DNA of 45,875 bases from Tissierellia bacterium (GTDB lineage: Bacteria; Bacillota; Clostridia; Tissierellales; Tissierellaceae), in contig JAAYQJ010000149.1 in assembly GCA_012519355.1 (NCBI GenBank), positions 1-45,875 on the forward strand, in the 5' to 3' direction. The notes under the pieces are model-generated. The model did no database searches, was not told the origin of the DNA, and saw only the letters and a list, made by a program, of their open reading frames with translations. This document shows, in pieces, positions 2,259 to 43,060 of the stretch; within the stretch, counting starts at the first letter, position 1, and every line of letters starts with the position of its first letter. A program made the position numbers and the translations under genes.

Positions 2259-4076
2259 TTAATCAATCATATTAATATATTTTCTTTCATTGGTTAAGTC
2301 AAAGATAAAGAAAAACATCATATATATGAAGGTTATGGGGCCCGTATCATTTAACAATAGTCCTACAATGGCAGTTATCAATACTATGAAAGTCTTACTT
2401 TTTAATTTAATATTTTCTAAAATATAATCCTTCATCTTTCTTAATATTAATACTTGAGAGGCTAAAATTATGGAAAAAGGTGGAACAATAGTTAACTTAA
2501 ATAATTCTTTTGCCTTGAATGAAACTATAGTCATAAACTCCCACAATCCATTTTTCTTAATTCTATAAAGAAACTCTATTGCATGGGAATTAGAAGTATT
2601 GCTATAATCAAATAACATGTTAACAGTAAAAATTCCAATTACTAAAAGAAATAATATAATATATTTGTTAATAATATTTTTGCCAAGGGAAAAGATATAA
2701 TAAACCATTAGGCCAAATAAGACTATAGAGGTTATGAACCCCCCTGTGTTTGCACCAAATCTTGCAGATAAGACTAACATATTTAATGTGAATATAAATA
2801 GGCCAAGTATTTTTTTATATCCATTTCTGTTTATACCCTCAATTGAAGAAAAATATATGAGGATTGATGATATTAAAAACACTCCCATTATTCCATTGTT
2901 TAATCCATAAAATCTAGCTCCATAGACCAAATTATTAAATCCAATAAATGAGTTATATATTATCTTAGGGTAAAACAATACCCCTAAACTTATCAAACCA
3001 TAAATCAAAAAACTTAGAGCCTTAATTAGGTCTAATTTCTTTATTATGAAAAATTTAACTGTTCCGTAAGATAAGAGTATACATATTAAAAGGTATAAGA
3101 GTATATTTTTCTGAAGATTGAACACTCCCAATACTATCGAAATAGGAATACTTGCTGCCATGGAGCTATATAGTCCATAGACCCAATTATCAATCTTCCT
3201 ATATTTTAAAAGCCTTATACTAAAAATAAACTGTGTAAAATATATTAACCCATGGAATACAGTTGCAAGGATTAACAGATTCATTGTATCAGTAAAAATA
3301 TCTCTTATTCTTTCCATAGGATTTTCTGCTTTGATGAACTCAAAAGGTTTTCCCACAGTATTTTTATAATCTATTCCATATATACTTTTTATGTGGACTG
3401 AAATATCTTCTAAAGTAATTAAGCCCTCTCTTCTAGTAGACTGACTAGTCAATATCCCTGAATCTTTTCCATTAATGTAAATTATGGGTACTAAAAACTT
3501 ATTTAGCAAATTTCTATCCACTTTAGCTACTCCCTCAGGCAAGATAATTATATTTCTATCGGAATAGTTTTCTAAGTATTTTTTTAATATATCTACTCTT
3601 TTATCCTCCCCTTTGAAGTCGTAGGATACAAGCAAAATATTAGATTTTTTTAATAGGTAGTCAGTATTTTCAATGAGCCAATCTAAATCGTAATTTATCT
3701 CATCTAGCTCATAATCCACTTCACCCTTACTATTGGCAACTAGAATTTTTTCTGTCCTACCACCTATGTAGGAGACCTTTTCTTTTTTTAAAACATCACC
3801 TAAATATTCGATTTTGGCGTTTTTATTTTTAAACTCCTTCAATGATAGTTTCCTTCCAGTATTTATGGACAATAATAGGTTTTCCTTATAATAAGGTGGC
3901 CTAGTTTTATAGTTTACAAGTCCTATGCTATATTTTTCTAAAGCCAAATCTTTAATTAGATCAAATGACAACTCATCAACTAGGATCAGGATGGAATCAT
4001 TACTAGATGCCCTAATGGTATTAGGCACAAAAAATATAATCATTATTAATAATAAGCCAATTATTCTTCTTTTCAT
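2259..4076 (-). CDS. polytopic membrane protein with an N-terminal extracytoplasmic domain of about 250 aa, function unknown
   Basis: Signal/anchor sequence, soluble domain, then about 10-12 hydrophobic helices. SD-like AGGGTGA upstream; 9-nt gap to the preceding ORF. Confidence 0.6.
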   Translation of the reverse strand: MKRRIIGLLLIMIIFFVPNTIRASSNDSILILVDELSFDLIKDLALEKYSIGLVNYKTRPPYYKENLLLSINTGRKLSLKEFKNKNAKIEYLGDVLKKEKVSYIGGRTEKILVANSKGEVDYELDEINYDLDWLIENTDYLLKKSNILLVSYDFKGEDKRVDILKKYLENYSDRNIIILPEGVAKVDRNLLNKFLVPIIYINGKDSGILTSQSTRREGLITLEDISVHIKSIYGIDYKNTVGKPFEFIKAENPMERIRDIFTDTMNLLILATVFHGLIYFTQFIFSIRLLKYRKIDNWVYGLYSSMAASIPISIVLGVFNLQKNILLYLLICILLSYGTVKFFIIKKLDLIKALSFLIYGLISLGVLFYPKIIYNSFIGFNNLVYGARFYGLNNGIMGVFLISSILIYFSSIEGINRNGYKKILGLFIFTLNMLVLSARFGANTGGFITSIVLFGLMVYYIFSLGKNIINKYIILFLLVIGIFTVNMLFDYSNTSNSHAIEFLYRIKKNGLWEFMTIVSFKAKELFKLTIVPPFSIILASQVLILRKMKDYILENIKLKSKTFIVLITAIVGLLLNDTGPITFIYMMFFFIFDLTNERKYINMID

Positions 4077-7300: not shown

Positions 7301-7642
7301 CCTATAGTATTTTCTCCATTTAAAACCTTTTTTGAAATTCTTACGTATTTCGGTCCTAATTCTATGAATCATCTCTTGGGTAGCTTTTTTAGTAAAGGTT
7401 ATAGCTACTATGGATTCAATTTCCTTTCCCTTTTCCAGCTTTCCATGTTCTAATATATGAATATATCTTTCAGTTAAAACCTTAGTTTTTCCAGTACCTG
7501 CCCCAGCATTTACAGCTAAATTACTATCTATGGTTTCAACAGCATTTTTTTGGGCTTCATTTAAGGTCATTATTCTCCCTCTGGTCTGATCTTGATTTTT
7601 AGCAACTATTTTTTCTCTATTTTGAGTATTTTTTAGAACCAT
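4301..7642 (-). CDS. addA: AddA-type ATP-dependent helicase/nuclease (UvrD/Rep helicase plus C-terminal PD-(D/E)XK nuclease with a 4-Cys cluster)
   Basis: Walker A AGAGTGKT, motif II VDEFQD, GDPKQSIY. C-terminal GIIDRI, ILDYKT, QLQLY nuclease motifs, plus Cys in FRECQRRFF and CSHYCKHKSFC. GGAGG SD 7 nt upstream; start overlaps the addB stop (TAATG). Confidence 0.85.
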   Translation of the reverse strand: MVLKNTQNREKIVAKNQDQTRGRIMTLNEAQKNAVETIDSNLAVNAGAGTGKTKVLTERYIHILEHGKLEKGKEIESIVAITFTKKATQEMIHRIRTEIRKNFKKGFKWRKYYRDLEKANISTIHSFCAKILRECPVEANIDPYFEVLEDYQSAKILRESIKEVLIKGINEDEKVYRLLLAFGRDNVDSLVKDLLYIYNKVRTVGISFIQLKERSIKQLKDLEVSNDDLRDIKGIFQYLMERLPKNSKIYKLQNNENWLRFKNDEYDENELPKLMTFLYDNIGNSTKEPEKIDQLKEIIERVLLSFEKDNIEIYTTVLDLLIGIDEVYDSKKEDLRALDYDDLQIKLLKLLDDVDIRKRYQDKFRYIMVDEFQDINELQKNIFYKLASVDKKIDKANLFVVGDPKQSIYGFRGADLEVFYNVIGDIEEVAKPISLDINYRTVNTVLEFINDIFQKLMGSRYNSLSHFRVSTNPIDIEILENVDLTIPEGVSPREYHRFYESVLIAKRIKELVLSGKYKYGDFAILFRASTRNYIYEEALKRFGIPFYNFSGKGFFDQREILDLINALKAISNPFDTIASLGLLRSPLIGLSDKILYWILRYRETTVYESMKNIINREILGDEDKKKVLEAVELMEYLYEIKHLYGLEFLVNELIRKTYFIESLLLKQGGKQAVANINKFIDMVKEYEKDNVQSLEDLIDYLDEIKDMDESQEKIYSEDSNVVKILTIHKSKGLQFPVVIIPEMSSTPNMGFPNIVFSKNIGIGIEVNNSKILYNKIKKELADKEKEEMERILYVAMTRTEDLLILGFQGKDTGYKKLIKDLIDYSKCNKISNIDMEGEEYKPIKLIDDELIVEDIVDIEIPLLYDIPEFSKKRVERYSISQYLVFRECQRRFFLDYYKKLATFDNDEYASPDEEKYLDGIEKGNIVHEFCERYVPGTDIKRLIEKISRSYGIPYTDELYEEVKVYIDNYIKLYRDDYERVYVERPFYLKIKDYYITGIIDRINIHNGKAEILDYKTNRIDNLGYLIYKYTPQLQLYAYVVKEIMNIEIESARIVFLENGENASIPIDDKSLVKNLNRLEEFMDFVSNNSSILNYVKSRNCSHYCKHKSFCDLE

Positions 7643-9489
7643 TATATGACCTCCAATACTTTTTCATATCTACAGATGTCTTTATATATGCAGTATGGTG
7701 AACATTCTAAAGGGTTTACTGAGAAGTTGCCGGTTAAAATTCTTTCTATTATCTCTTTTATATTTGCCTTCGTCTCATCCATAAGCTTGTCCCATTCTTC
7801 TTTACTTATGGCTCCCTTATGCCTATTAGTTATTTGCTTTGTTTCTTCTCTGATGCCTAACTTAACCTCGAATTTTTGTTGGGAAACCACTCCGTACACT
7901 CCAGCCACAATATTTTTATCTTCTTGAGATAGGATATAAATTGGCAATTGTAATGATAGTCCTTGTATTATTTTATCTATATCATAAACTCCATAGGAAC
8001 TACTTTTATAATCCATGATTATATATTTATCTTCACCGGCTATTTTGTCAATTCTATCGATTTTTCCTCTAAATTTCACTTCTACTCCATCAATTTCTAT
8101 GGAAAAATCCTTGTATTTACCAAATTCTACTTCAAAGGCATAGGGTACTAATTTTTCCTTAGGATTGGAAATTCTCTCTATATCCATTTCGATAAATTTA
8201 GCTAATCTGATATATATATTTTCAATTATCAGTTGATTCATTTTGTTATCCAAATCAAAGCCAATTTGCTTAGCATATTTTTTGACTAAGTCTCTAAGAT
8301 AATCTAAAGATGCCTCAACATCAAAGGCATTTTTATCTAAAATATGGTCTTCAAAATCCCTTTTATAGTTATAATAGTATTCTTTCAAGACCTCGTGATA
8401 TATAATCCCTACATCTATAGGTTTATATTCTTGGAAATATCTTTCCATTTCATCTATGTTAAGTATTCTACTTAATAAAAAATAATATGGACATTTACTA
8501 TAGGCCTCTAAGTAGGTATTTGAATATACTTTGTCCAGGTGTATCTCTTCTAAATCCTTTATAATTTCATCATCTGAAATAAGTCCCTTATACTCATTAA
8601 AACCTGAGGAGTATCTTTTATATTCACAATAATTCTTCTCATTGATTGATCTAAATTTATTCTTAAGCTTACTATTATGATATGAATAATATGGGCTTAA
8701 GTCTTCATCTGAATTGCTAAGATTCAAGATTAAATAATTTGATAATTCATCTAATGTAGTTATATTTTCTATATTATTTTTTATTTGATAATCTAAACCT
8801 AAGTTTATCGTTGGCATTTTATCCTCTAGCCTTTCCCCTTTGAACATATTTAACAACTCATCTAAAAAAATTGAAAAGATACTATCTTCTTCTTTACCCT
8901 CACTTAAGGATAGATAAAGTATATCTTTGCATGAAGCTATTAAGGAAGCAAATTTAATTACTTCGTTGTACAATCTATTATGATAGGTTTTATAATCTAG
9001 GCCGATATCTCTAAAATACTTATAATTTATATCATTGATAAAGAAATTGTTTTCTTTTAAAATTGGGTAATAATTTGAAGATAGGCCTGCAATAAATAGG
9101 ATTTCATGGGTAAAGCCTCTACTGCTTATGGGATTAAGTATATTAACTCCTCCTATATTATTGTCCTCTTCAAGAATGCTCTCATCTCTAATAGTTTTTA
9201 ATAGGGCATCAAAGTAATCTTCAATGTCTATCTGGTCCTCTATTAAGGCAAGACCCTTCATATCTTCAATTATTTTTAATAGTTTTTCTAGAGCTTGAAA
9301 ATCCCTATGAAGAAGTTGGTAATTCTTGTCTTTTTTGTATCTATTATTAATAGTATCTTGAAGATTATAATTATTAATCATTTGGATAAAAATTCGACTA
9401 TAATTTTCAACAAAATCCCTATCTAATATAGGGTCTAACTCAAGATATAAATCCTCTACTAATTTTGTGATCAACTCAATATAGTCCAT
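7642..9489 (-). CDS. addB: AddB-type nuclease subunit, C-terminal portion (PD-(D/E)XK nuclease with iron-staple cysteines)
   Basis: YSKCPYYFLLSRIL, GKIDRID, IMDYKSS, LQLPIY and C-terminal CSPYCIYKDIC. No SD upstream of its ATG; in frame with the upstream 411-aa ORF. Confidence 0.75.
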   Translation of the reverse strand: MDYIELITKLVEDLYLELDPILDRDFVENYSRIFIQMINNYNLQDTINNRYKKDKNYQLLHRDFQALEKLLKIIEDMKGLALIEDQIDIEDYFDALLKTIRDESILEEDNNIGGVNILNPISSRGFTHEILFIAGLSSNYYPILKENNFFINDINYKYFRDIGLDYKTYHNRLYNEVIKFASLIASCKDILYLSLSEGKEEDSIFSIFLDELLNMFKGERLEDKMPTINLGLDYQIKNNIENITTLDELSNYLILNLSNSDEDLSPYYSYHNSKLKNKFRSINEKNYCEYKRYSSGFNEYKGLISDDEIIKDLEEIHLDKVYSNTYLEAYSKCPYYFLLSRILNIDEMERYFQEYKPIDVGIIYHEVLKEYYYNYKRDFEDHILDKNAFDVEASLDYLRDLVKKYAKQIGFDLDNKMNQLIIENIYIRLAKFIEMDIERISNPKEKLVPYAFEVEFGKYKDFSIEIDGVEVKFRGKIDRIDKIAGEDKYIIMDYKSSSYGVYDIDKIIQGLSLQLPIYILSQEDKNIVAGVYGVVSQQKFEVKLGIREETKQITNRHKGAISKEEWDKLMDETKANIKEIIERILTGNFSVNPLECSPYCIYKDICRYEKVLEVI

Positions 9490-9507
9490 AGTAATATTTA
9501 GGGATTT

Positions 9508-10743
9508 CTATTCCTTTAATAATCTTATAAAATCATCTATATTGGTAAAATTCACCTTTCTCAAGATGAATTCAATTGCATCCATATGTTCTTTATCTAC
9601 TAGCTTAAAATAATGGGCTTTAAGTCTAGGAATTAAGAATTGTTTGTCTCCCCTATTTATTCTAGTCTCAATTAAATTTAAAAACTCTTTAACTAAGGGG
9701 ACTTGAATCAGAGGAATTTCCTTCCTGGCATTTATAGGTAGCTTCTCCTCACTTGCTACTTTATATAGAATTTCCTTATATTCTTCATTTAAAAGAACTA
9801 TGGCCATGTCTTCCAGTCTATATCCATTTTTATGATGCCTTCTTATTTCCTCAAATATCTTTTTAAGTTCCAAGTAAATACTCGGTGATTTGATTAATCT
9901 AATATTATCCGTTTTCCCAACCTCTTCAAACTCTTCATGGAAGAAATTATATCCTATGGTTTCGAAGGTATTCTTATCCTTTCCATTAACATATTCCAAT
10001 TGAAATCCTAACTCCATTAATTTAGATAGGGTCTCCTCTACATTAGGGATTTTAGATTTCATTTCAAAGGGAATGTTTATATAAATATCTACATTTGTTT
10101 TAGAAAGCTCCTTAATTATTTCCAACTCTACTGGCCTGAAATCATAAAATTCATCTATGATAATAAAATCTAAATCTTGAAATTTATGTAAATTATCCTT
10201 CAAAGTACCTATAGCCTTAAAATATGCCCCCTCCCTATCTATTAAGCCTAAAGATTCTAAATGCCTTTCATATTCTCCATAGATAAGGCCAATCTCTTTA
10301 AAGTATGGCCTATTAGGACATTTCAATAAATAATCATCTGGGTATATTATAGACCTTTTTATTTCCCCAATAATATAATTCAGTCCTTCTAAAAATCCTT
10401 CTCTTGAGGCAATATTTTTATAATAATTAAGTTTTCCTTCTTCCCTTAAATTTCTGATTGACTTCTTGATAATCAAATCCTTCATAGATTCATTGACGGT
10501 AAAATAGGTTTCATCCTTAATAATACTGGCAACTATATCATCAAAGGTAAATATATTTATTTCAAATACCTTCTCAGCTTCATTAATAAGTTTTTTCCTA
10601 TAGTCCTTTAATAGTCCTCCATGAGGCAGCAGATAATAAAACCTATTCCCCAAACCTTTCTTTAAGTAGTCCAGGGCCATATTAAAAAGCTTTGTTTTTT
10701 GATAGTTATTAAAAGGCCCAAAATATATAGTTCTATTAGCCAT
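9508..10743 (-). CDS. addB: AddB-type subunit, N-terminal portion (degenerate helicase-like domain)
   Basis: AddB-like N-terminus with degenerate Walker A (FGPFNNYQKT) and motif II-like IIIDEFYDF. Ends at a TAG that is in frame with the following 615-aa ORF. Confidence 0.7.
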   Translation of the reverse strand: MANRTIYFGPFNNYQKTKLFNMALDYLKKGLGNRFYYLLPHGGLLKDYRKKLINEAEKVFEINIFTFDDIVASIIKDETYFTVNESMKDLIIKKSIRNLREEGKLNYYKNIASREGFLEGLNYIIGEIKRSIIYPDDYLLKCPNRPYFKEIGLIYGEYERHLESLGLIDREGAYFKAIGTLKDNLHKFQDLDFIIIDEFYDFRPVELEIIKELSKTNVDIYINIPFEMKSKIPNVEETLSKLMELGFQLEYVNGKDKNTFETIGYNFFHEEFEEVGKTDNIRLIKSPSIYLELKKIFEEIRRHHKNGYRLEDMAIVLLNEEYKEILYKVASEEKLPINARKEIPLIQVPLVKEFLNLIETRINRGDKQFLIPRLKAHYFKLVDKEHMDAIEFILRKVNFTNIDDFIRLLKE

Positions 10744-28211: not shown

Positions 28212-29558
28212 TTAAAAAACATGGTTTGCTATAACATTATATACCTTTTCCTTATTTTTTAACCATTCTTCGTAGGAATTTATCTCATTAAAAATTATAT
28301 TGATGTTATTATTTAATGTGTTGATGCTACATTCACATAGGAAGTCAACATCTACATGATCCATGAAGTTATAAGCTATAGCATCCATAATATTTTCTAA
28401 TATCTCATCCTTTTCTACTTCCTTTAGGTCTTTCTCTTCTAATACCAGTTTGATGGATTCATAAAACCTATACCTAATAAAAATGATAAAGCCTTCAAAA
28501 TCTTCTGCCTTATTTCCTCCTTCTATTTCAAATATTATCTTAAAGAATAAATTCCATCTGAAATCCTTATTTATTATTTCTAGAATACTATTACCTACCT
28601 TCCTTGTAAAACAATCATTAAAGGAAAGTGGTCTTTCAAAATCAATATATTTGTTAAAAGATATATCACTTTTACCAATTTCATTTAATCTATTTAATAT
28701 CCTAATAAAGTTTACACTGTAGTTATCAGTTTTCTCTAATCCATCCTTCATAAATATATAATCTACTATAACATCCGTAGATTTTTTGAAATCGATTACA
28801 AACCCCAATTCACGTTTTAATTTAACAATATAAATATCATGAATGATTTTAGATAATAAGGCCTGCAATTGGGCTTTTTTAGTCATTGAATTGCTGGAAT
28901 CCATACCCTTTAAATGGTTGTATACAAGCATTAATTGTCTATCTATCATGGATAAATTGTCTTTAATAGAGGACATTATATCTCTAAAAAAATCTTCAGT
29001 TAACATATAATTATAGTTCTTATAAAGGATTCTATGGTCTATTTCACCCCAAAACACGTTTACTAAGGATTTAATCTGAAGTTCAAAATTAACTGATATA
29101 TGATCCTTTACATATTTTCCATCAATTTTATATATTTCAAAACCGTTTTTTTGTTTTTGAGGTTGCTTAGTCTTCAAATCTAGCATAATATTTGAATTGA
29201 GAGGATTTGTATAATAGCCATCTTCTAATTCTATTTTGAATAATTTTACTATATCATTATATATTTTCTTTTCATCTTCAATAAATCTACATTCAATCCT
29301 AAAACCTATTAAGTCTGATAGATTATTTATTAAGTTCTCCGGGGTCATATATTTTATGTAAAAGTTGTGTCGAAGTATCTTCTCTCTTAAACTCTCAGGC
29401 GATTTAATTCTATAACTAACATTTAAAAAATGATCATTAATAAAAAAACTATCAGTAAAAAACTTCTCTAATGCAGAAGCCACATTATCTATACTTTCTT
29501 TTCTTTCTTCAATGAGGTCTAATGTCTCATCAATAAAGTCAAACAGTTCCAGCTTCAT
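28212..29558 (-). CDS. RelA/SpoT-domain (alarmone-synthetase fold) protein with an uncharacterised C-terminal helical domain of about 250 aa
   Basis: Synthetase-fold motifs YRIKSPESLREKI, DLIGFRIECRF, ELQIKS...FWGEIDHRILYK in the first 190 aa. No hydrolase (HD) domain. Own promoter-like TGATATAAT and AGGGGGA SD. Confidence 0.7.
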   Translation of the reverse strand: MKLELFDFIDETLDLIEERKESIDNVASALEKFFTDSFFINDHFLNVSYRIKSPESLREKILRHNFYIKYMTPENLINNLSDLIGFRIECRFIEDEKKIYNDIVKLFKIELEDGYYTNPLNSNIMLDLKTKQPQKQKNGFEIYKIDGKYVKDHISVNFELQIKSLVNVFWGEIDHRILYKNYNYMLTEDFFRDIMSSIKDNLSMIDRQLMLVYNHLKGMDSSNSMTKKAQLQALLSKIIHDIYIVKLKRELGFVIDFKKSTDVIVDYIFMKDGLEKTDNYSVNFIRILNRLNEIGKSDISFNKYIDFERPLSFNDCFTRKVGNSILEIINKDFRWNLFFKIIFEIEGGNKAEDFEGFIIFIRYRFYESIKLVLEEKDLKEVEKDEILENIMDAIAYNFMDHVDVDFLCECSINTLNNNINIIFNEINSYEEWLKNKEKVYNVIANHVF

Positions 29559-29636: not shown

Positions 29637-29659
29637 AGAGAAATCATATAGATTTCTCT
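29637..29659 (-). terminator. rho-independent terminator after nqrF
   Basis: 9-bp stem agagaaatc / gatttctct with a 5-nt loop; minus-strand tail TTTCTTTTT; overlaps the nqrF TAG. Confidence 0.7.
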
Positions 29660-30761
29660 AATCAAATTTATCGAAGTAAATTAGTTCTTCTGATAAACCT
29701 TTTGCAGTTAAAGCTGTAACCATTGTATCTATCATGGCCTTATTGCCGCAGAGATAGGCTTCCTTATATTCACCGTTTTCTAAATATTTATCTATAACAA
29801 CATTTACCCTACCTCTTTCTCCTTGCCAATTATGTTCTTCTGTAGCCCTAGTAAGGGTAGGAATATATTTAAAATCAAACATGGTTTCTTCCAATTCCTT
29901 AAAGAAATCCGTCATCATTAGATCATCAGGAGTTCTGGCCCCGAAGTAAAAAGTTGCCTTCCTATTGATATTCTTTTCCTTCATATATCTTAGTATTGAA
30001 AGAATTGGAGCTATACCTGTACCTGCAGCTACTAATACTATCTCCCTATCACTATCTTCTTGGAAATAAAAGTCACCATAAGGACCATTTATCTGTACTG
30101 TATCTCCAACTTTTAAGTGTTTGTGTACATAGGTAGTACAAATACCATTAGGTACATATCCAATAAATAATTCTATATGATCTTTATCATAGGGTGATGA
30201 AGCTATTGAATAAGCTCTATAAACCTCCTCGTCGTTGCCTTCATAAATAGGAGCCTTTAATTGTATAAACTGCCCCGGCTTAAAGCTTATATCCTCTCCT
30301 TCCGGTAGTTTAAGCTTCAATCTCTTAATTACTGATGTGACATCTTCCATTTCTTCAACAACTGCAGCAAATTCCTTTACATTAAATAGCTCCTCAGGTA
30401 TTTCTATTTTTATATTTTCTTTTACCTTACACTGACATGAAAGTCTAACCCCTTTTTCTATTTCCTCATCTGACATAAAGGGAGTTTCTGTGGATAGAAT
30501 TGGTCCTCCTCCTTCTAAAACTCTAACCTTACAATATCCACATGTACCCTTCCCACCACATGCAGAGGGAATGAATATCTTTTCATCTATTAAAGTAGAT
30601 AAGAGGGACGACCCTCCTTGAACAGTATACTCCTTATCCTCATTAATTATTATGCTTACTTCTCCATAATTACCTATTGTTCTATCAGCCAAGGTAAGCA
30701 AAAAGGCAAATATAGCAGAAATCCCAGATATAGCAACTGTAGTAATAATTATTTCGTTCAT
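29658..30761 (-). CDS. nqrF: NqrF-type NADH-oxidising subunit (TM helix, 2Fe-2S ferredoxin, FAD/NAD-binding domain)
   Basis: N-terminal helix; SACGGKGTCGYCKV...C 2Fe-2S motif; RAYSIAS FAD motif; AAGTGIAP NAD motif. 367 aa, shorter than Vibrio NqrF. Confidence 0.85.
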   Translation of the reverse strand: MNEIIITTVAISGISAIFAFLLTLADRTIGNYGEVSIIINEDKEYTVQGGSSLLSTLIDEKIFIPSACGGKGTCGYCKVRVLEGGGPILSTETPFMSDEEIEKGVRLSCQCKVKENIKIEIPEELFNVKEFAAVVEEMEDVTSVIKRLKLKLPEGEDISFKPGQFIQLKAPIYEGNDEEVYRAYSIASSPYDKDHIELFIGYVPNGICTTYVHKHLKVGDTVQINGPYGDFYFQEDSDREIVLVAAGTGIAPILSILRYMKEKNINRKATFYFGARTPDDLMMTDFFKELEETMFDFKYIPTLTRATEEHNWQGERGRVNVVIDKYLENGEYKEAYLCGNKAMIDTMVTALTAKGLSEELIYFDKFD

Positions 30762-30773
30762 ATTGGCCCCCCC

Positions 30774-31364
30774 TTATTGTATCTGAACTATGCCAGAAAA
30801 GCCTACAAAAGCTAAGGCCATAAGTCCAGTTATAATTAAACTAATACCTGCCCCTTCTAACCCCTTAGGTATTGATGCTTTCTTTAATTTTTGGCGGATT
30901 CCAGCCAAGGCTACTATGGCTAAAGTCCATCCTATTCCTGAACCTATACTAAATCCTATTGATTGAAGGAAATTATATTTACGAATAATCATAAATAAGG
31001 AAACTCCTAGAATAGCACAGTTAACAGTTATTAGGGGTAAAAATATTCCTAAAGCATAGTATAAATTTGGTAAGTATCTCTCTACTATCATCTCCAATAA
31101 TTGTACAAAGGCTGCAATACTAATTATAAATACTATAAATCTCAGATATTCTAGATTCAAAGGTACCAATACATAATGATATATTAAGTAATTAATAATT
31201 GTAGTACAGGCTAGTACAAAAGTAACTGCCTGACCTAAACCTAATGAAGTAGGAATTTCTTTTGATACAGCAATATAAGAGCACATACCCAAGAAATTGC
31301 TAAATATCATATTGTTAGTAAATATGGCTGCAAAGAAAATAACCATTGGATTAAGTTCAATCAT
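30774..31364 (-). CDS. nqrE: NqrE/RnfA-family membrane subunit
   Basis: FLGMCSYIAVSK and LGIFLPLITVNCAI, both Fe-ligand Cys retained; GSGIGWTLAIVALAGIR. Confidence 0.85.
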   Translation of the reverse strand: MIELNPMVIFFAAIFTNNMIFSNFLGMCSYIAVSKEIPTSLGLGQAVTFVLACTTIINYLIYHYVLVPLNLEYLRFIVFIISIAAFVQLLEMIVERYLPNLYYALGIFLPLITVNCAILGVSLFMIIRKYNFLQSIGFSIGSGIGWTLAIVALAGIRQKLKKASIPKGLEGAGISLIITGLMALAFVGFSGIVQIQ

Positions 31365-31987
31365 GATTTAGCCACCTCACCTTTCTTTTCTTCTTTATCC
31401 TTTTCTTGGATACTCTTCGTTATCCAAATAATAACTGCTAATATGAAAAAAGCAGCTGGTGGCATTATCATTATGGTCCAAGATGTCCACCAGTCACCTA
31501 GAACCCTGATACCAAAAATAGTTCCAAATCCAAAAAGCTCCCTAACAAAGGCAATCAATAATAGGACTATTGTATAGCCTAAACCCGAAGCCACTCCATC
31601 TAAAAAAGCTGGGATTGGTGGATTTTGCTGGGCATAGGCTTCTGCCCTACCCATTATTATACAATTGGTAATTATTAAGCCTACATAAGGTCCAAGAGCT
31701 TTGCTCATCTCAGGCATGTAAGCTTGCAAAAATATATCAACTATAATTACATAGGCTGCTATTATAAGTACTTGAACCATCATTCTAATATGTTTAGGTG
31801 TAAAGTTTCTAATTAATGACACTGTAAATGAAGATAAACCTGTTACAAACATCAAGCCTACTCCCATAATTAATGAATTCATCATTACATTAGTAACAGC
31901 CAAAGCTGAACAAATACCTATTATTTGAACTAGTACAGGGTTATCCTTCCATACACCCATCTCAAAAATCTTTTTTGGGCTATCCAT
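31361..31987 (-). CDS. nqrD: NqrD/RnfE-family membrane subunit
   Basis: GICSALAV and GLIITNCIIMGRAEA, both Cys retained; LIRN and FVRELFG motifs; 4-nt overlap with nqrE. Confidence 0.85.
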   Translation of the reverse strand: MDSPKKIFEMGVWKDNPVLVQIIGICSALAVTNVMMNSLIMGVGLMFVTGLSSFTVSLIRNFTPKHIRMMVQVLIIAAYVIIVDIFLQAYMPEMSKALGPYVGLIITNCIIMGRAEAYAQQNPPIPAFLDGVASGLGYTIVLLLIAFVRELFGFGTIFGIRVLGDWWTSWTIMIMPPAAFFILAVIIWITKSIQEKDKEEKKGEVAKS

Positions 31988-32592
31988 TAATTATTCCCCC
32001 TTCCTTTCAAGAACTTATCTAAATCTTCGTTGATGAAATTACTAACTGATTTAGAAGTTAATGTAGCTCCAGCTATAGCATCTACATTACCACCAGGGGC
32101 TGGCCTGTATATGATGTAATTTCCATCTCTTGCCTTAGTTAAATCTAAACCCCTAAACTGTTCTTTAAAATCATCTTCAGAAATTCTCCCACCTAGTCCT
32201 GGGGTCTCACTGTGGGATATGAAGTCCAACCCAAGAATGATTGAATAATCATGGGAAACTCCTATATAAGCTTCTACACTTCCCCAAAGACCTGGTCCAC
32301 CAACAGGTACTGCATAGCCTAAGATTTCACCATCATCTCCATAATATACATATATAAAATTATCTTCATAGGCCATGGTACCAATACTCTCTTCAAAAGC
32401 TCTTAAAACATCTGCTGGTTCCTCTGATTGAGGTTCTATATTGAATATATACAATATTTTCCTACTCAACTCTAATTCCTTGTTTAAGGCTATCCTCTCC
32501 GCAGTACTATGATTTAGAAATGCTAGTACAAAGGTGAATATGGCAGTTACTACAATCATAAAGATTATTGGAAAAATAAAAGATTTTTTCAT
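31987..32592 (-). CDS. nqrC: NqrC/RnfG-family FMN-binding subunit
   Basis: N-terminal TM anchor, ETPGLGGRI, flavinylation motif DAIAGATLTS. 201 aa, which is RnfG-sized. Confidence 0.8.
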   Translation of the reverse strand: MKKSFIFPIIFMIVVTAIFTFVLAFLNHSTAERIALNKELELSRKILYIFNIEPQSEEPADVLRAFEESIGTMAYEDNFIYVYYGDDGEILGYAVPVGGPGLWGSVEAYIGVSHDYSIILGLDFISHSETPGLGGRISEDDFKEQFRGLDLTKARDGNYIIYRPAPGGNVDAIAGATLTSKSVSNFINEDLDKFLKGRGNN

Positions 32593-33572
32593 ATTGCCAC
32601 CTCTTCTTTTTTCGCTTTTAGCTCCTTTTTATACCTCTTATAGGCATTGACTCCTTCATCCATAATTGGAACAAAGGTATTAGCTATAAGAATGGCAAAC
32701 ATCATTCCACCTGCAAATAATGCGTACCCTCGGATTATGACTGTAACAATACCAATTAATATTCCATAAATCCACTTGGCCTCCTTAGTCTTAGGCGCTG
32801 TTATTGGATCTGTTGCCATGAAGACAGCACCAAATAATAAACCGCCTGCAAAAATACCAAAAATCGGATTTGGTATTTGGCTAACACCTAAGGCATATAA
32901 GCTACCACTTAAAGCTGTAAATCCAATAATAACACCAGCCATAATCTGCCATGAGGCAACCTTCTTATAGATTAAGTAAATTCCTGCAAGGATTATTAAT
33001 ATGGCTGATGTTTCACCTAAGGAACCTGTAACATTTCCTAAAACTAAATCCATCATAGAAGTTAGATTTCCAGTATCCCTAAATATAAGCATTGGAGTTG
33101 CTTGAGATACTGCATCGATACCTTCGGTAATGTAGGCTGCAAATCCTCCTGGAAACCCTACAGCTGACTTTGACCATTCAATAGTAAGTGGCGCAGGAAA
33201 GCATACATATACAAATGCCCTAGCAACTAAGGCAGGGTTGAATACATTTTTCCCAAATCCACCAAATACTTCCTTCCCGAAAAAAATGCCAAATATAATC
33301 CCTATGGCTGCAATCCAAAGTGGTGTAGATGGTGGTAGAGTCATTGTATAAAGAATGCAAGAAACAAAAACTGCCTCTGAAACTTTTCTATTGTATTTTT
33401 TTTCAAACATCCATTCAGTAGTCAAACCTGCAATGGTTACGACCACTAGCAAGACTAATGCCCTCCAACCAAAAAAATAGATTGAAGCTATTATTATTGG
33501 TATTAAAGATAATATCACTGAACGCATCATCTTTTGCTTCATAAAATTCTTTTTATAGTTATCCCCTAACAA
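32589..33572 (-). CDS. nqrB: NqrB/RnfD-family membrane subunit
   Basis: GKEVFGGFGKNVFNPALVARAF, flavinylation-like DAVSQAT, FMATDP. TTG start 5 nt after GGAGGTG. 327 aa, so it lacks the long NqrB N-terminal extension. Confidence 0.8.
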   Translation of the reverse strand: MLGDNYKKNFMKQKMMRSVILSLIPIIIASIYFFGWRALVLLVVVTIAGLTTEWMFEKKYNRKVSEAVFVSCILYTMTLPPSTPLWIAAIGIIFGIFFGKEVFGGFGKNVFNPALVARAFVYVCFPAPLTIEWSKSAVGFPGGFAAYITEGIDAVSQATPMLIFRDTGNLTSMMDLVLGNVTGSLGETSAILIILAGIYLIYKKVASWQIMAGVIIGFTALSGSLYALGVSQIPNPIFGIFAGGLLFGAVFMATDPITAPKTKEAKWIYGILIGIVTVIIRGYALFAGGMMFAILIANTFVPIMDEGVNAYKRYKKELKAKKEEVAI

Positions 33573-33706
33573 AATAACACCTCCGTTTAATATATTGAAT
33601 TATTAATATGTTAGTATGATATATTCCCAATAATCCTTTAAAATAACATTTATTAATAAGTTATAATCATATATAGGTACTTATGTCTAAAATTTACAAA
33701 AAAAAA

Positions 33707-33726
33707 GAAAGGATATTTATCCTTTC
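33707..33726 (-). terminator. second (strong) terminator after csp
   Basis: Stem gaaaggat / atcctttc followed by a 9-T run on the minus strand. Confidence 0.75.
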
Positions 33727-33740
33727 GAAAAATATTAAAA

Positions 33741-33764
33741 CCCCTTAAAGATGACTTTAAGGGG
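33741..33764 (-). terminator. first terminator after csp
   Basis: 10-bp stem ccccttaaag / ctttaagggg with a 4-nt loop, then TTTT on the minus strand. Confidence 0.7.
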
Positions 33765-33780
33765 TAGTTGGTTTCCAATA

Positions 33781-33978
33781 CTATAGAATATTGATATTTT
33801 CTGCTTGTAGACCTTTAGCGCCTTCTACAACATTAAATTCTACTTCTTGACCTTCTTCTAAAGTTTTGAATCCTTCTTTGTTGATTTGGGAGAAGTGAGC
33901 GAATACATCGTTTCCTTCTTCTGTAGTAATAAATCCAAATCCTTTTTCTGCATTAAACCATTTTACTGTACCTTTCAT
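33781..33978 (-). CDS. cspA: cold-shock protein (CspA family)
   Basis: KGFGFI (RNP1) and VFAHF (RNP2) motifs; 65 aa. Confidence 0.95.
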
Positions 33979-34153
33979 TGCATATACCTCCGAAATTTTA
34001 TTGCTTTAATTCTCTGAAATAATACTGACAATAAAATTTCTTGACATATGCAGATATAAATCTGTACTTCTAGAAACTATTGTGCGCTGATTATTTACTT
34101 CCGAATTAAAGCTTCATCATAATATTATCATACTATTATATATAATGCAACAA
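33979..34153 (-). promoter_or_regulatory. csp promoter candidate and long structured 5' leader
   Basis: Candidate TTGTTG (34148-34153), 18 nt, GATAAT (34124-34129). A leader of about 135 nt contains a 10-bp long-range pairing (34103-34112 with 34003-34012). Confidence 0.45.
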
Positions 34154-34350
34154 AATTTTCTAACTTTTTTCTACTATTACATGGTATTATTGTTTAATTT
34201 TCAAAATTTTAAAAGTAGTATTATTTTGCACTATTTATATTTATTTTATAATTAATTGGGTAAAATTATACTATATTTGATATAATAGATATGGTTACAA
34301 GTTATATTGTTTATATCAATATACTATTATTATATATTTGGAGGGATTTT

Positions 34351-34848
34351 ATGCATACTATGATTAAAAAATATGTAGATCAAGGCTTTATGACTGAAGC
34401 TGAAGGAAAATACATTCATGAAGCAATTGAAAGAAAAGAATCAGTTGTAGTTTCAGGCCATAGATCTGCAGGTATTAGGCCATTAATGGCTGCACTGATG
34501 GCGGTAGCAAAGGGTGGTTATAATGCAGTTCAAGTTAAAGGATTTGAAGATTTAGACAAGGATACAGAATATTTCCTTATTCCAGGTATTGACAATTTGG
34601 ATTTTGAAAAGCTTATCTTTGAAGCAATGAAAAAACCTAATACTTCCTTTGTTACTTTGAAAGAACCAGAACATCCATATTCTATCCTAAAGTTATTGAG
34701 AGATGTTTACAAGGAAACTGGAGATACTTCAAAGGTCTATCAAGTATTAGAATGCTCAAAAATTGATGATGTACCTAAGCTAACTAAGATCACAAGAATG
34801 GCTTTAAACGAAAAAGGCAGAGTTGTTAAAGAAGACTTTCAAGAATAA
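34351..34848 (+). CDS. hypothetical protein (165 aa) with a degenerate secretion-ATPase-like P-loop region
   Basis: GGAGGG SD 5 nt before the ATG at 34351; the ORF-track start at 34291 lacks an SD. ESVVVSGHRSAGIRPLMAAL sits where VirB11/CpaF-type ATPases have the Walker A. Confidence 0.5.
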   Translation: MHTMIKKYVDQGFMTEAEGKYIHEAIERKESVVVSGHRSAGIRPLMAALMAVAKGGYNAVQVKGFEDLDKDTEYFLIPGIDNLDFEKLIFEAMKKPNTSFVTLKEPEHPYSILKLLRDVYKETGDTSKVYQVLECSKIDDVPKLTKITRMALNEKGRVVKEDFQE

Positions 34849-42007: not shown

Positions 42008-43060
42008 GGGGCAGTAAAATTTGACAATCAGGCCCAGTTTCACCCACTAAAATATTTGTACCCTTTAGTTAAAGTAATTGATAAAAGGGGGGTTAAGATA
42101 TACGAAAATACAAGAGTTGTTGAGATTAAGGAAGAAAATAATAATTATATACTCACAACATGTCAAGGTAAAAAAATTCAGGCTGAAAAAGTTATTATTG
42201 CTTCTCACTACCCTTTTTTTAATAAACATGGAATGTATTTTTCAAGAATTTATGCCTTTAGGACTTATATAATAGGGATTAAAGCCCAGGAAAAGTACCC
42301 AGGAGGAATGTATATTAATGCAGAAGATCCTTCACGGTCTTTAAGGTGTGTAAACACTAGTGAAGGGGAATTGATACTTGTGGTAGGTGATAATCATAAG
42401 ACGGGACAGGGAGAGGATATGAATAAGCATTATAATGCTTTGATAGATTTTGCAATGAGAATCTACACCATAGAAGATATTCCTTACAGGTGGTCTACCC
42501 AAGATTGTATGACCTTAGATGGTTTACCCTATATTGGATACTATACTTCCAATACACCAAATCTTTATATAGCTACAGGCTTTCAAAAATGGGGTATGAC
42601 CAATAGTACTGTTGCTTCTATTCTCCTTAGGGACTTAATACTTAAAGGCCATAGCCCTTGGGAAGAAGTCTATAGTCCTTCTAGAAAGACTATTACAGCT
42701 TCTACAAAAAAGTTTATTACAGTAAATGCAGATGTAGCTAAACATCTAATAAAAGGAAAAATAGAGTCCCCAGATGAGAACCTTGATATATTGAATGGAG
42801 AAGCCCAAGTTATAGATATTGATGGCAACAGAGTAGGAGCATATAGAGATGATAGTGGAAAGCTTTATTTTGTTAATATAACCTGCACCCACATGGGATG
42901 TGAATTAAATTGGAATAATGCATAAAAATCATGGGATTGTCCATGTCATGGTTCTAGATTCTCCCATAAGGGAGAAATACTAGAAGGTCCTGCTGTAAAA
43001 ACTCTTAATAATACTGAAGATATTAATACAATAGTAAAATTATTTAAGGAAGATTTTTAA
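42008..43060 (+). pseudogene. remnant of an FAD-dependent oxidoreductase with a C-terminal Rieske domain (YhfW-like): 5'-truncated, with an in-frame TAA
   Basis: Reading frame opens at ...GAVKFDNQAQFHPLKYL with no GxGxxG FAD-binding N-terminus, no ATG and no SD. Rieske box I CTHMGC and box [10 protein letters not shown] are separated by a TAA at 42923-42925 ([15 protein letters not shown]). Confidence 0.75.

Follow-up and report, generated by a model that had tools for sequence, protein, structure and literature searches.

An NqrBCDEF operon without NqrA in a Tissierellia bacterium: subunit anatomy, relatives and a candidate electron path

Two forms of a distinctive redox-driven sodium pump are known, Rnf and Nqr, and in reviews each is presented as a machine of six subunits with defined partners. 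Here we describe an operon that encodes homologues of NqrB to NqrF and no NqrA, located in a 45,875-nucleotide (nt) stretch of DNA from a Tissierellia bacterium (contig JAAYQJ010000149.1 of assembly GCA_012519355.1), referred to throughout as the window. Operons of this kind have been noticed in genome papers, i.e., NqrBCDEF without NqrA in Thermotoga thermarum and T. lettingae, with the other reactant given as unknown (2014; PMC4148951), and the same operon in Clostridium ultunense, P. lettingae and Alkaliphilus metalliredigens, genomes that also hold a full rnfCDGEAB operon (2018; PMC5924567). The announcement of the 'Ca. Izimaplasma' ZiA1 genome likewise lists NqrBCDEF (PMC6256511). A study of Nqr evolution from 2014 did not detect nqr in Thermotogae and described A. 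woodii and those Clostridium species that it discussed as lacking the nqr operon, and in those parts of a 2025 RNF/NQR review that a term search reaches, NqrA-less complexes are not mentioned.

The window operon is an ordinary member of this previously noticed class, which is represented in a close relative, and the class itself is large, unnamed and inconsistently annotated. We favor, with moderate confidence, the reading that the five subunits make up a functional complex from an NqrA-less branch of Nqr, a cation-pumping NADH dehydrogenase from which electrons would leave the riboflavin of subunit B for a non-canonical acceptor.

Operon anatomy and cofactor ligands

The operon comprises five translationally coupled, head-to-tail open reading frames (ORFs) on the minus strand (33572-29658), arranged in the order B-C-D-E-F (Table 1). 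B and C overlap by 4 nt, C and D by 1 nt, and D and E by 4 nt, whereas E and F are separated by 12 nt. With terminators on either side of the five coupled genes, the preliminary description of this DNA, made from the letters and their translations, was right to regard the operon as self-contained. It was also right that NqrA, RnfC and RnfB are missing from the window: no match to any of them was found by phmmer (E<=1e-3) among window ORFs of at least 40 amino acids (aa), using reference proteins from the annotated operons of Ruegeria, Bacteroides finegoldii and Vescimonas.

In Pfam, B matches NQR2_RnfD_RnfE (PF03116, E 4.8e-91), C matches FMN_bind (E 2.2e-14), D and E match Rnf-Nqr, and F combines Fer2, FAD_binding_6 and NAD_binding_1 downstream of an N-terminal hydrophobic helix. 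The alignment of F with Vibrio NqrF (194 bits) is full-length and includes the membrane helix, which together with the Pfam result confirms the last gene as NqrF-type, i.e., a membrane helix followed by a 2Fe-2S ferredoxin domain and a domain resembling ferredoxin-NADP+ reductase that binds flavin adenine dinucleotide (FAD) and NADH. The segment that matches Vibrio NqrF residues 177-203 is missing from F.

Assignment of the remaining subunits to Nqr or Rnf is less uniform. Scored in bits against the cut-offs of the curated NCBIfam models, D alone passes the Nqr equivalog thresholds (NqrD, 256.8 against 235 and 250 against 244.85) and falls below that for rnfE (180.7 against 213.4). B reaches 246.4 against 414 for NqrB, covering only profile positions 122-396 of 406, and passes the rnfD subfamily model TIGR01946 (237.7 against 207). 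C is below both nqrC (93.7 against 144) and rnfG (88 against 102), E is below both nqrE (241.9 against 247.55) and rnfA (223.7 against 229.3), and F is below the nqrF equivalog (270.9 against 295), for which there is no Rnf counterpart model. Comparison with proteins of known structure gives a similar picture: D is Nqr-like (194.6 bits with Vibrio NqrD, 142.8 with the best RnfE), E is equidistant (197 bits with A. woodii RnfA, 193.9 with Vibrio NqrE), C matches NqrC and RnfG about equally (~55 bits), and B scores 175 bits with Vibrio NqrB and 160 bits with C. tetanomorphum RnfD. By these scores D is clearly Nqr-like, and B, C and E are ambiguous between the two families.

In agreement with the preliminary description, B is RnfD-sized, C is RnfG-sized and the long N-terminal extension of NqrB is missing from B: its alignment to Vibrio NqrB begins at Vibrio residue 132, and ~90 N-terminal residues are missing. 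Our data do not lend support, however, for the suggestion that the KEVFGG..NPAL..RAF motif of B is Nqr-like, since the motif also occurs in RnfD and is not specific for Nqr. The context of the flavinylation site in B (ATP-L/M) is RnfD-like.

The cofactor ligands are kept throughout, as had been noted, and the alignment of related operons extends this to the class. The 2Fe-2S ligands of F (C68, C74, C77 and C109) are invariant in an alignment of related F proteins (A1). C26 and C109 of D together with C28 and C116 of E make up the four ligands of the intramembrane 2Fe-2S cluster; the first three are present in 83/83 aligned sequences and E C116 in 82/83. T159 in the DAVSQAT motif of B, the attachment residue for flavin mononucleotide (FMN), is kept in 69 of 71 NqrA-less sequences; covalent FMN is predicted at this position, and a riboflavin site in B is predicted by homology. 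In C, a membrane anchor lies at the N-terminus, and the FMN-binding domain, which is extracytoplasmic, has the flavinylation motif AGAT(LTS). The cysteine ligands of D and E and the FMN-attachment threonines of B and C are common to Nqr and Rnf and do not discriminate between them.

Distribution, the sixth gene X and phylogenetic position

The preliminary description implied that the architecture is new or rare, which does not hold: the same architecture has been published for Schnuerera (Clostridium) ultunensis, whose B is ~75% identical to that of the window, and it occurs at 551 or more loci in many phyla. The Tissierella pigra locus, with a B ~81% identical, has five genes whose sizes and flanking synteny are the same as in the window. 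A search with F against 1.84 billion cluster representatives returned many clusters, defined at 50% identity, whose F proteins are membrane-anchored and short (356-375 aa) and outrank canonical NqrF (405-433 aa). An alignment of short F proteins was then used to scan one genome per species; at least 551 loci were confirmed and the best 80 were kept. They derive from Tissierellia, Peptoniphilaceae, Anaerococcus, Fusibacter, various Clostridia, Spirochaetota, Kiritimatiellota, Verrucomicrobiota, Planctomycetota, WOR-3, TA06, Cloacimonadota, Riflebacteria, Omnitrophota, Latescibacterota, Desulfosoma and Acholeplasmatales/Izimaplasma; Fusobacteriota are also among the groups with such loci. Subunit names are inconsistent in NCBI annotation, for example in Ilyobacter. 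Among the 80 loci, all those sufficiently complete for their gene order to be determined show B-C-D-E-F, and conservation of this order across phyla points to purifying selection on a functional complex. In the related loci B is mostly 300-360 aa and F ~360-375 aa, values that are upper bounds given that the longest ORF was taken. One C subunit departs from the usual ~200 aa, i.e., that of Acholeplasma oculi (Table 1), which suggests a much enlarged extracytoplasmic subunit because over-extension of an ORF is unlikely in a low-GC genome.

Gene order is thus kept across the class, whereas the strict five-gene form represents only a part of it, and most relatives add a sixth gene, here called X. 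Among 76 loci with readable downstream sequence, 48 carry a same-strand ORF of ~150-165 aa right after nqrF, and the cultured Ilyobacter polytropus DSM 2926 is one of the carriers (Table 1). X is soluble and contains the conserved motifs GFLGxDxR, RGxLPCPF and IHLIxxHGFFEGKGSxFRLxP. It has no match in Pfam, in NCBIfam or among PDB sequences; 1560 homologues were found, and among the best 120 every source name shown reads 'hypothetical protein'. The predicted fold is confident (predicted local distance difference test score 93.2) and has no structural neighbor in the PDB (best E 0.19, template modeling score <=0.23). The idea that X is a remnant of NqrA, RnfC or RnfH was rejected, there being neither a sequence match in Pfam, NCBIfam or the PDB nor a fold match in the PDB.

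Linkage of X to the operon is tight. In a metagenome sample centered on X, nqrF lies directly upstream in 70 of the 72 loci for which 200 nt or more are available on that side; the sample was made with a closer alignment (A3) and is biased towards Spirochaete-like X. In a plasmid collection X was found in Ilyobacter only. An all-against-all BLAST survey of three genes on each side of 82 loci identified X as the sole widespread neighbor. X is missing, however, from all eleven loci of the Tissierellia-Peptoniphilaceae-Fusibacter clade to which the window belongs (L001-L011), from the Acholeplasmatales clade and from loci with an RnfC-like gene, and a profile search of the six-frame translation of the window gave no significant match (best E 0.96). 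X appears to have been lost secondarily from the operon of the window's clade, and because it is dispensable in cis in several clades it is regarded as an accessory factor, in assembly or acceptor docking, rather than as part of the catalytic core.

NqrA and RnfC homologues adjoining B are missing in almost all of ~70 related loci. A clear gene of this kind (A/C-like) is found directly upstream of B in only four, from Anammoxibacter, Planctomycetia, Omnitrophota and an unclassified genome (Table 1); L066 and L077 have further weak matches upstream of B. All four clear genes keep two CxxCxxCxxxC (4Fe-4S) motifs, and for this reason they are RnfC-like rather than cofactor-less NqrA. These loci are thus hybrids in which an RnfC-like gene shares one operon with B-C-D-E and an NqrF-type gene. 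In none of the four was X found, although the Planctomycetia locus has too little downstream sequence to judge. Both ends of such a hybrid complex would be NAD(H)-linked. Separately, at a single locus, in a Clostridiaceae metagenome-assembled genome, the gene directly upstream of B encodes a protein with weak matches (E ~1e-10) to RnfB-like 4Fe-4S ferredoxin-type proteins.

The length of the N-terminus of B varies together with the presence or absence of an A/C partner. Counted up to KEVFGG, B has 99 residues in the window and a median of 100 in NqrA-less operons, and RnfD has 110-113. The hybrids with an RnfC-like gene are intermediate, with 140-142 residues in the three for which a value could be obtained, and canonical NqrB, whose N-terminus anchors NqrA in Vibrio (PMC9325719), has 163-190.

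Neighbor-joining trees with Kimura distances were built from longest-ORF starts and included canonical Nqr operons from Prevotella, Ruegeria, Proteus and Neisseria, Rnf operons from Gemmatirosa, Acetoanaerobium, B. finegoldii and Vescimonas, and fragments of the Vibrio, C. tetanomorphum, A. woodii and A. vinelandii proteins taken from PDB alignments. D and E are paralogues, and each subtree roots the other. NqrA-less operons and canonical Nqr form a clade apart from Rnf (bootstrap 91 for D and 98 for E), and Rnf is separated from all other operons with bootstrap 100 both in the B tree and in that of the concatenated B+D+E+F (1063 columns); that B to E fall inside ordinary Rnf, a possibility raised in the preliminary description, is at odds with the B, D and E trees. 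Canonical Nqr is monophyletic to the exclusion of the window (85 for D, 88 for E, 99 for B and 100 for the concatenated set). In the concatenated tree the window's Tissierellia-Peptoniphilaceae-Fusibacter clade, the Acholeplasmatales clade and a large clade composed of every X-bearing lineage plus the window's clade each have bootstrap 100, whereas the RnfC-bearing hybrids and Acholeplasmatales fall outside this large clade, nearer to canonical Nqr or the base. Because the clade of the window falls within X-bearing lineages in 100/100 replicates, it is, on this tree, a reduced and derived form.

The canonical NqrF insert of 26-31 residues is missing from all NqrA-less F proteins and from the soluble-reductase outgroup. 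Three structural characters, i.e., the N-terminal length of B and the state of the F insert in NqrA-less F and in the outgroup, fit the order of the tree. A parsimonious history, whose deep order comes from neighbor joining with few outgroups, would comprise four steps. An Rnf-type operon would first have gained NqrF while retaining RnfC; in one line RnfC would have evolved into NqrA, together with a longer N-terminus of B, to give canonical Nqr; the other line would have lost the A/C subunit and acquired X; and the window's clade would then have lost X from the operon.

Candidate electron path and competing readings

The electron path can be drawn by analogy with the relatives. NADH would reduce the FAD of the cytoplasmic F. 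From there single electrons would travel through the 2Fe-2S cluster of F and then through that of D and E within the membrane, to reach the covalent FMN of C on the outside of the membrane; the way back would lead over the covalent FMN of B to its riboflavin, which lies towards the cytoplasmic side. This double crossing of the membrane would drive the export of Na+ (or H+), as in the relatives. The path is supported by the conservation of every ligand across the class, and the near-invariance of the FMN-attachment threonine of B suggests that electrons return via B and do not leave from C. With an NqrF on a Rnf/Nqr core and its ligands intact, the preliminary proposal of an ion-pumping NADH oxidoreductase with an unknown acceptor is a reasonable one, and the earlier genome papers agree with it.

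F occupies the position of RnfB in Rnf, so that NADH enters at the low-potential end, and the energetics of Rnf and Nqr are established. The acceptor would therefore have to be more positive than NADH for forward, ion-exporting turnover. As to the exit step, two N-terminal amphipathic helices of Vibrio NqrB close over ubiquinone, and a side chain of whatever kind in place of Gly141 is said to keep the quinone from binding (PMC10643135). B lacks the N-terminal helices and a Gly141-type pocket, its Leu50 being aligned with Gly141 in a column that is bulky both in NqrA-less B proteins and in RnfD; the missing N-terminus and the bulky Leu50 argue that NqrA is truly absent, and against a quinone site of the Vibrio type. 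We infer that electrons most likely exit from the riboflavin of B to an acceptor outside the canonical quinone pocket. As acceptor we favor a redox partner in the cytoplasm, soluble or peripheral, whose potential would be far more positive than that of NADH, and in most relatives X probably assists assembly or the exit step.

Several points weigh against this reading. The sole Prevotella NqrB in the alignment also has Leu in the Gly141 column, which weakens the Gly141 argument, and a menaquinone-reducing Nqr has reportedly been described in a related Prevotella species. The searches for X, RnfC or another partner, ApbE and menaquinone genes are confined to the window, and the window's clade has no conserved neighbor that points to an acceptor. 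The trees are neighbor-joining trees with four full-length canonical Nqr loci (plus the Vibrio fragments) and four to seven Rnf references. Finally, as to whether the complex has already been characterized, its architecture is described in genome papers, but no biochemical or structural study of an NqrA-less complex was found by full-text searches.

The best-surviving alternative, which we nevertheless consider unlikely, is an NADH:menaquinone (or demethylmenaquinone) oxidoreductase, i.e., an ordinary Na+-NQR minus one non-catalytic subunit, with the quinone bound at an NqrA-independent site of B near the riboflavin. NqrA has no cofactor and no assigned catalytic role (PMC12174285), and in solved structures the quinone head group touches NqrB and not NqrA (PMC10643135). 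Gly140 and Glu144 of Vibrio NqrB are conserved as G49 and E53 of B, and the Leu of Prevotella NqrB mentioned above points the same way. Against this stand the loss from B of both helices that close over ubiquinone and the bulky residue-141 column, which resembles that of the quinone-independent RnfD. Furthermore, the window has no quinone-biosynthesis or quinol-oxidizing genes, and operons of this class are often found in Spirochaetota, Acholeplasmatales and fermentative Clostridia and have been reported in Thermotogota, groups of which many members are not known to synthesize quinones.

It is improbable that the electrons stop at the extracytoplasmic FMN of C and are exported, with flavinylated reductases, Fe(III), humics or flavin shuttles as conceivable acceptors outside and B serving mainly as a scaffold or ion path. 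The FMN domain of C does face the outside in a monoderm, FMN domains flavinylated by ApbE feed several extracytoplasmic electron-transfer systems (PMC8238504), and Alkaliphilus metalliredigens, a putative NQR carrier, is tied to metal reduction (PMC5924567). However, the FMN-attachment threonine of B is retained in 69/71 NqrA-less operons, which speaks for use of the return path. Among the neighbors of the operon in 80 loci, neither an extracytoplasmic reductase nor a flavinylated partner is conserved, and the characterized unidirectional NQR/RNF-like systems are B-F fusions without D and E (PMC8238504).

We give slightly less credence again to the possibility that a partner encoded elsewhere in the genome completes the complex, be it the RnfC of a separate rnfCDGEAB operon, a relocated X or a protein that docks in the place of NqrA or RnfC. 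A full rnf operon is also present in C. ultunense and P. lettingae (PMC5924567), and Fusibacter has both the NqrA-less operon and Rnf; the N-terminus of B is RnfD-like in length, and X accompanies the operon in the 48 loci noted above. Yet RnfC on an NADH-fed complex would create a futile loop from NADH to NAD+, the position of X after nqrF in 70/72 X-centered loci gives little sign that X is encoded elsewhere, and X is missing from the window, its clade and Acholeplasmatales.

That the operon is an Rnf-Nqr evolutionary intermediate, an early stage in which NqrF had been gained and NqrA had not yet evolved, can be set aside as very improbable despite the mixed scores (D Nqr-like; B, C and E ambiguous) and an F that lacks the canonical insert like the soluble-reductase outgroup, as the operon groups with canonical Nqr away from Rnf (bootstrap 91-100) and lies deep inside the X-bearing clade in 100/100 replicates, the lineages with an RnfC-like gene and nqrF branch nearer the base, next to canonical Nqr, and a history in which A/C was lost first and X afterwards is more parsimonious.

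The operon belongs to a class with a third architecture, defined by NADH input, a full membrane core and no NqrA or RnfC. If such complexes pump ions, they would provide an additional energy-coupling site and a route of NADH re-oxidation, both missing from metabolic models, in many anaerobes that are supposed to be purely fermentative. A broader and distinctly more tentative proposal is that NqrA-less NqrBCDEF(X) might constitute a third functionally distinct branch of Rnf/Nqr, made up of cation-pumping NADH dehydrogenases that are quinone-independent and deliver electrons from the riboflavin of B to a new kind of acceptor, with involvement of X in most lineages; if true, fermentative anaerobes of many phyla would contain an unrecognized energy-coupling site, of which the window would hold the minimal version. 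Practical handles are offered by the cultured six-gene host Ilyobacter polytropus DSM 2926 and by the tightly linked orphan protein X, and the natural RnfC-plus-NqrF hybrids bear on the origin of Nqr from Rnf.

Genomic context and comparison with known systems

Upstream of the operon, a spacer of 208 nt separates B from the cold-shock gene csp. The tandem terminators after csp and the terminator at the nqrF stop codon, both described previously, were recovered, and the spacer contains no ORF and no NqrA or RnfC remnant, also as described; the promoter region claimed for it could not be confirmed, as a consensus scan gave 25 sites against 23.8 in shuffled sequence, and no promoter is claimed here. 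The 208-nt leader matches no Rfam family and no riboswitch. A riboswitch or other RNA element in the leader was rejected, the sole match being a weak one to the cspA thermoregulator RNA that covers csp and the leader of csp itself and is below threshold (44.4 bits against a gathering score of 78).

The other genes of the window are housekeeping genes of a strict anaerobe, including NrdD/NrdG, FeoB, MsrA, an AddAB-type nuclease and ABC transporters, and neither rnf nor apbE is among them. Directly downstream of F lies a gene for a protein with a RelA/SpoT synthetase-like domain; a functional link with the operon is unlikely because this adjacency is limited to the closest Tissierella relatives (L001-L003). 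The AddB-type nuclease is represented by two adjacent ORFs, which could be a frameshift or a natural split. Two ORFs have no Pfam match, the longer one at E<=1e-5, and the shorter one lies between csp and an acyl-ACP thioesterase gene; a Tissierella pigra gene, also without a Pfam match, has approximately the position of this shorter ORF. In a further ORF the match to the FAD-dependent oxidoreductase (DAO) profile is limited to the C-terminal half of that profile and is joined by a faint Rieske match; the gene may be truncated or mis-started.

Table 1 Positions of the operon, of other window features and of features in related loci. Positions without prefix refer to the window; those with an L prefix refer to related loci.
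Feature	Position	Strand	Remarks
Subunit B, NqrB/RnfD homologue	33572-32589	-	327 aa; TTG start; GGAGG box 8 nt upstream
Subunit C, NqrC/RnfG homologue	32592-31987	-	201 aa
Subunit D, NqrD-type	31987-31361	-	208 aa
Subunit E, NqrE/RnfA-type	31364-30774	-	196 aa
Subunit F, NqrF-type NADH input module	30761-29658	-	367 aa
Terminator-like hairpin and T-run at nqrF stop codon	29659-29637	-	operon end
csp, cold-shock gene upstream of B	33978-33781	-	
Terminator-like hairpins after csp	33765-33740 and 33726-33707	-	
Spacer from csp stop (33781) to B start	33573-33780	-	208 nt; two hairpins, AT-rich presumed promoter region, GGAGG
cspA thermoregulator RNA, sub-threshold match	33736-34050	-	
RelA/SpoT synthetase-like domain protein	28212-29558	-	448 aa
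AddB-type nuclease, both ORFs	7642-10743	-	
AddB-type ORF with ADDB_N	9508-10743	-	411 aa
AddB-type ORF with PD-(D/E)XK	7642-9489	-	615 aa
ORF without Pfam match	2259-4076	-	605 aa
ORF without Pfam match	34291-34848	+	185 aa
ORF with partial DAO match	42056-42925	+	289 aa
Tissierella pigra gene without Pfam match	L001:7383-7880		165 aa
X, Ilyobacter polytropus DSM 2926	L083:9382-9834	+	ILYOP_RS10195
X, example	L012:10424-10888		directly after nqrF
X, example	L014:11113-11601		directly after nqrF
RnfC-like gene, Anammoxibacter	L029:4708-6240	+	directly upstream of B
RnfC-like gene, Planctomycetia	L053:4045-5529	+	directly upstream of B
RnfC-like gene, Omnitrophota	L057:5571-7070	+	directly upstream of B
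RnfC-like gene, unclassified	L081:5084-6460	+	directly upstream of B
RnfB-like ferredoxin-type protein, Clostridiaceae	L010:5816-7093	+	425 aa
C subunit, Acholeplasma oculi	L074:6204-8669	+	821 aa

Compared with the canonical Na+-NQR of Vibrio cholerae (PDB codes 7XK3 and 8A1U), the window operon shares the NqrF-type input, the 2Fe-2S cluster between D and E and the covalent FMN predicted for both B and C; its D passes the NqrD cut-offs, and the two form one clade against Rnf. It differs in that NqrA, which canonical operons encode first and which binds to NqrB, is missing, B lacks ~90 N-terminal residues, a region that in canonical NqrB anchors NqrA and contributes to the pocket for ubiquinone and inhibitors, and has Leu in place of Gly141, C is ~55 residues shorter and F is without the 26-31-residue insert. 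In the neighbor-joining trees it lies outside the canonical clade (monophyletic with bootstrap 85-100), on a separate branch of NqrF-containing operons.

The Rnf complexes of Clostridium tetanomorphum (7ZC6) and Acetobacterium woodii (9ERI) resemble the window operon in the sizes of B and C and in the flavinylation context of RnfD. Furthermore, B passes the rnfD subfamily cut-off and E scores RnfA as well as NqrE. The differences from Rnf are the lack in the window of RnfC, the NAD+-reducing subunit with FMN and 4Fe-4S, and of RnfB, an input that is an NADH-specific NqrF and not a ferredoxin-accepting polyferredoxin, and a position apart from Rnf with bootstrap 91-100.

The NQR/RNF-like clusters of Actinobacteria and the Candidate Phyla Radiation (Meheust et al. 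2021, PMC8238504) are similar in being partial Nqr/Rnf systems with an NAD-binding module. In those systems the NqrB/RnfD membrane domain is fused to the NqrF NAD-binding domain and one-way electron transfer has been proposed, whereas in the window distinct genes encode B and F, and those for C, D and E are all present and lie between the two.

The published NqrA-less operons have the same gene order as the window and likewise lack nqrA, and for the Tissierellia members there is no material difference; the sixth gene X, the RnfC-bearing hybrids and the phylogenetic position are not reported in those genome papers. Within the NqrA-less NqrBCDEF(X) class, the window operon has the common gene order, a short B, a short, insert-free F and no A/C gene, and it represents the form without X.

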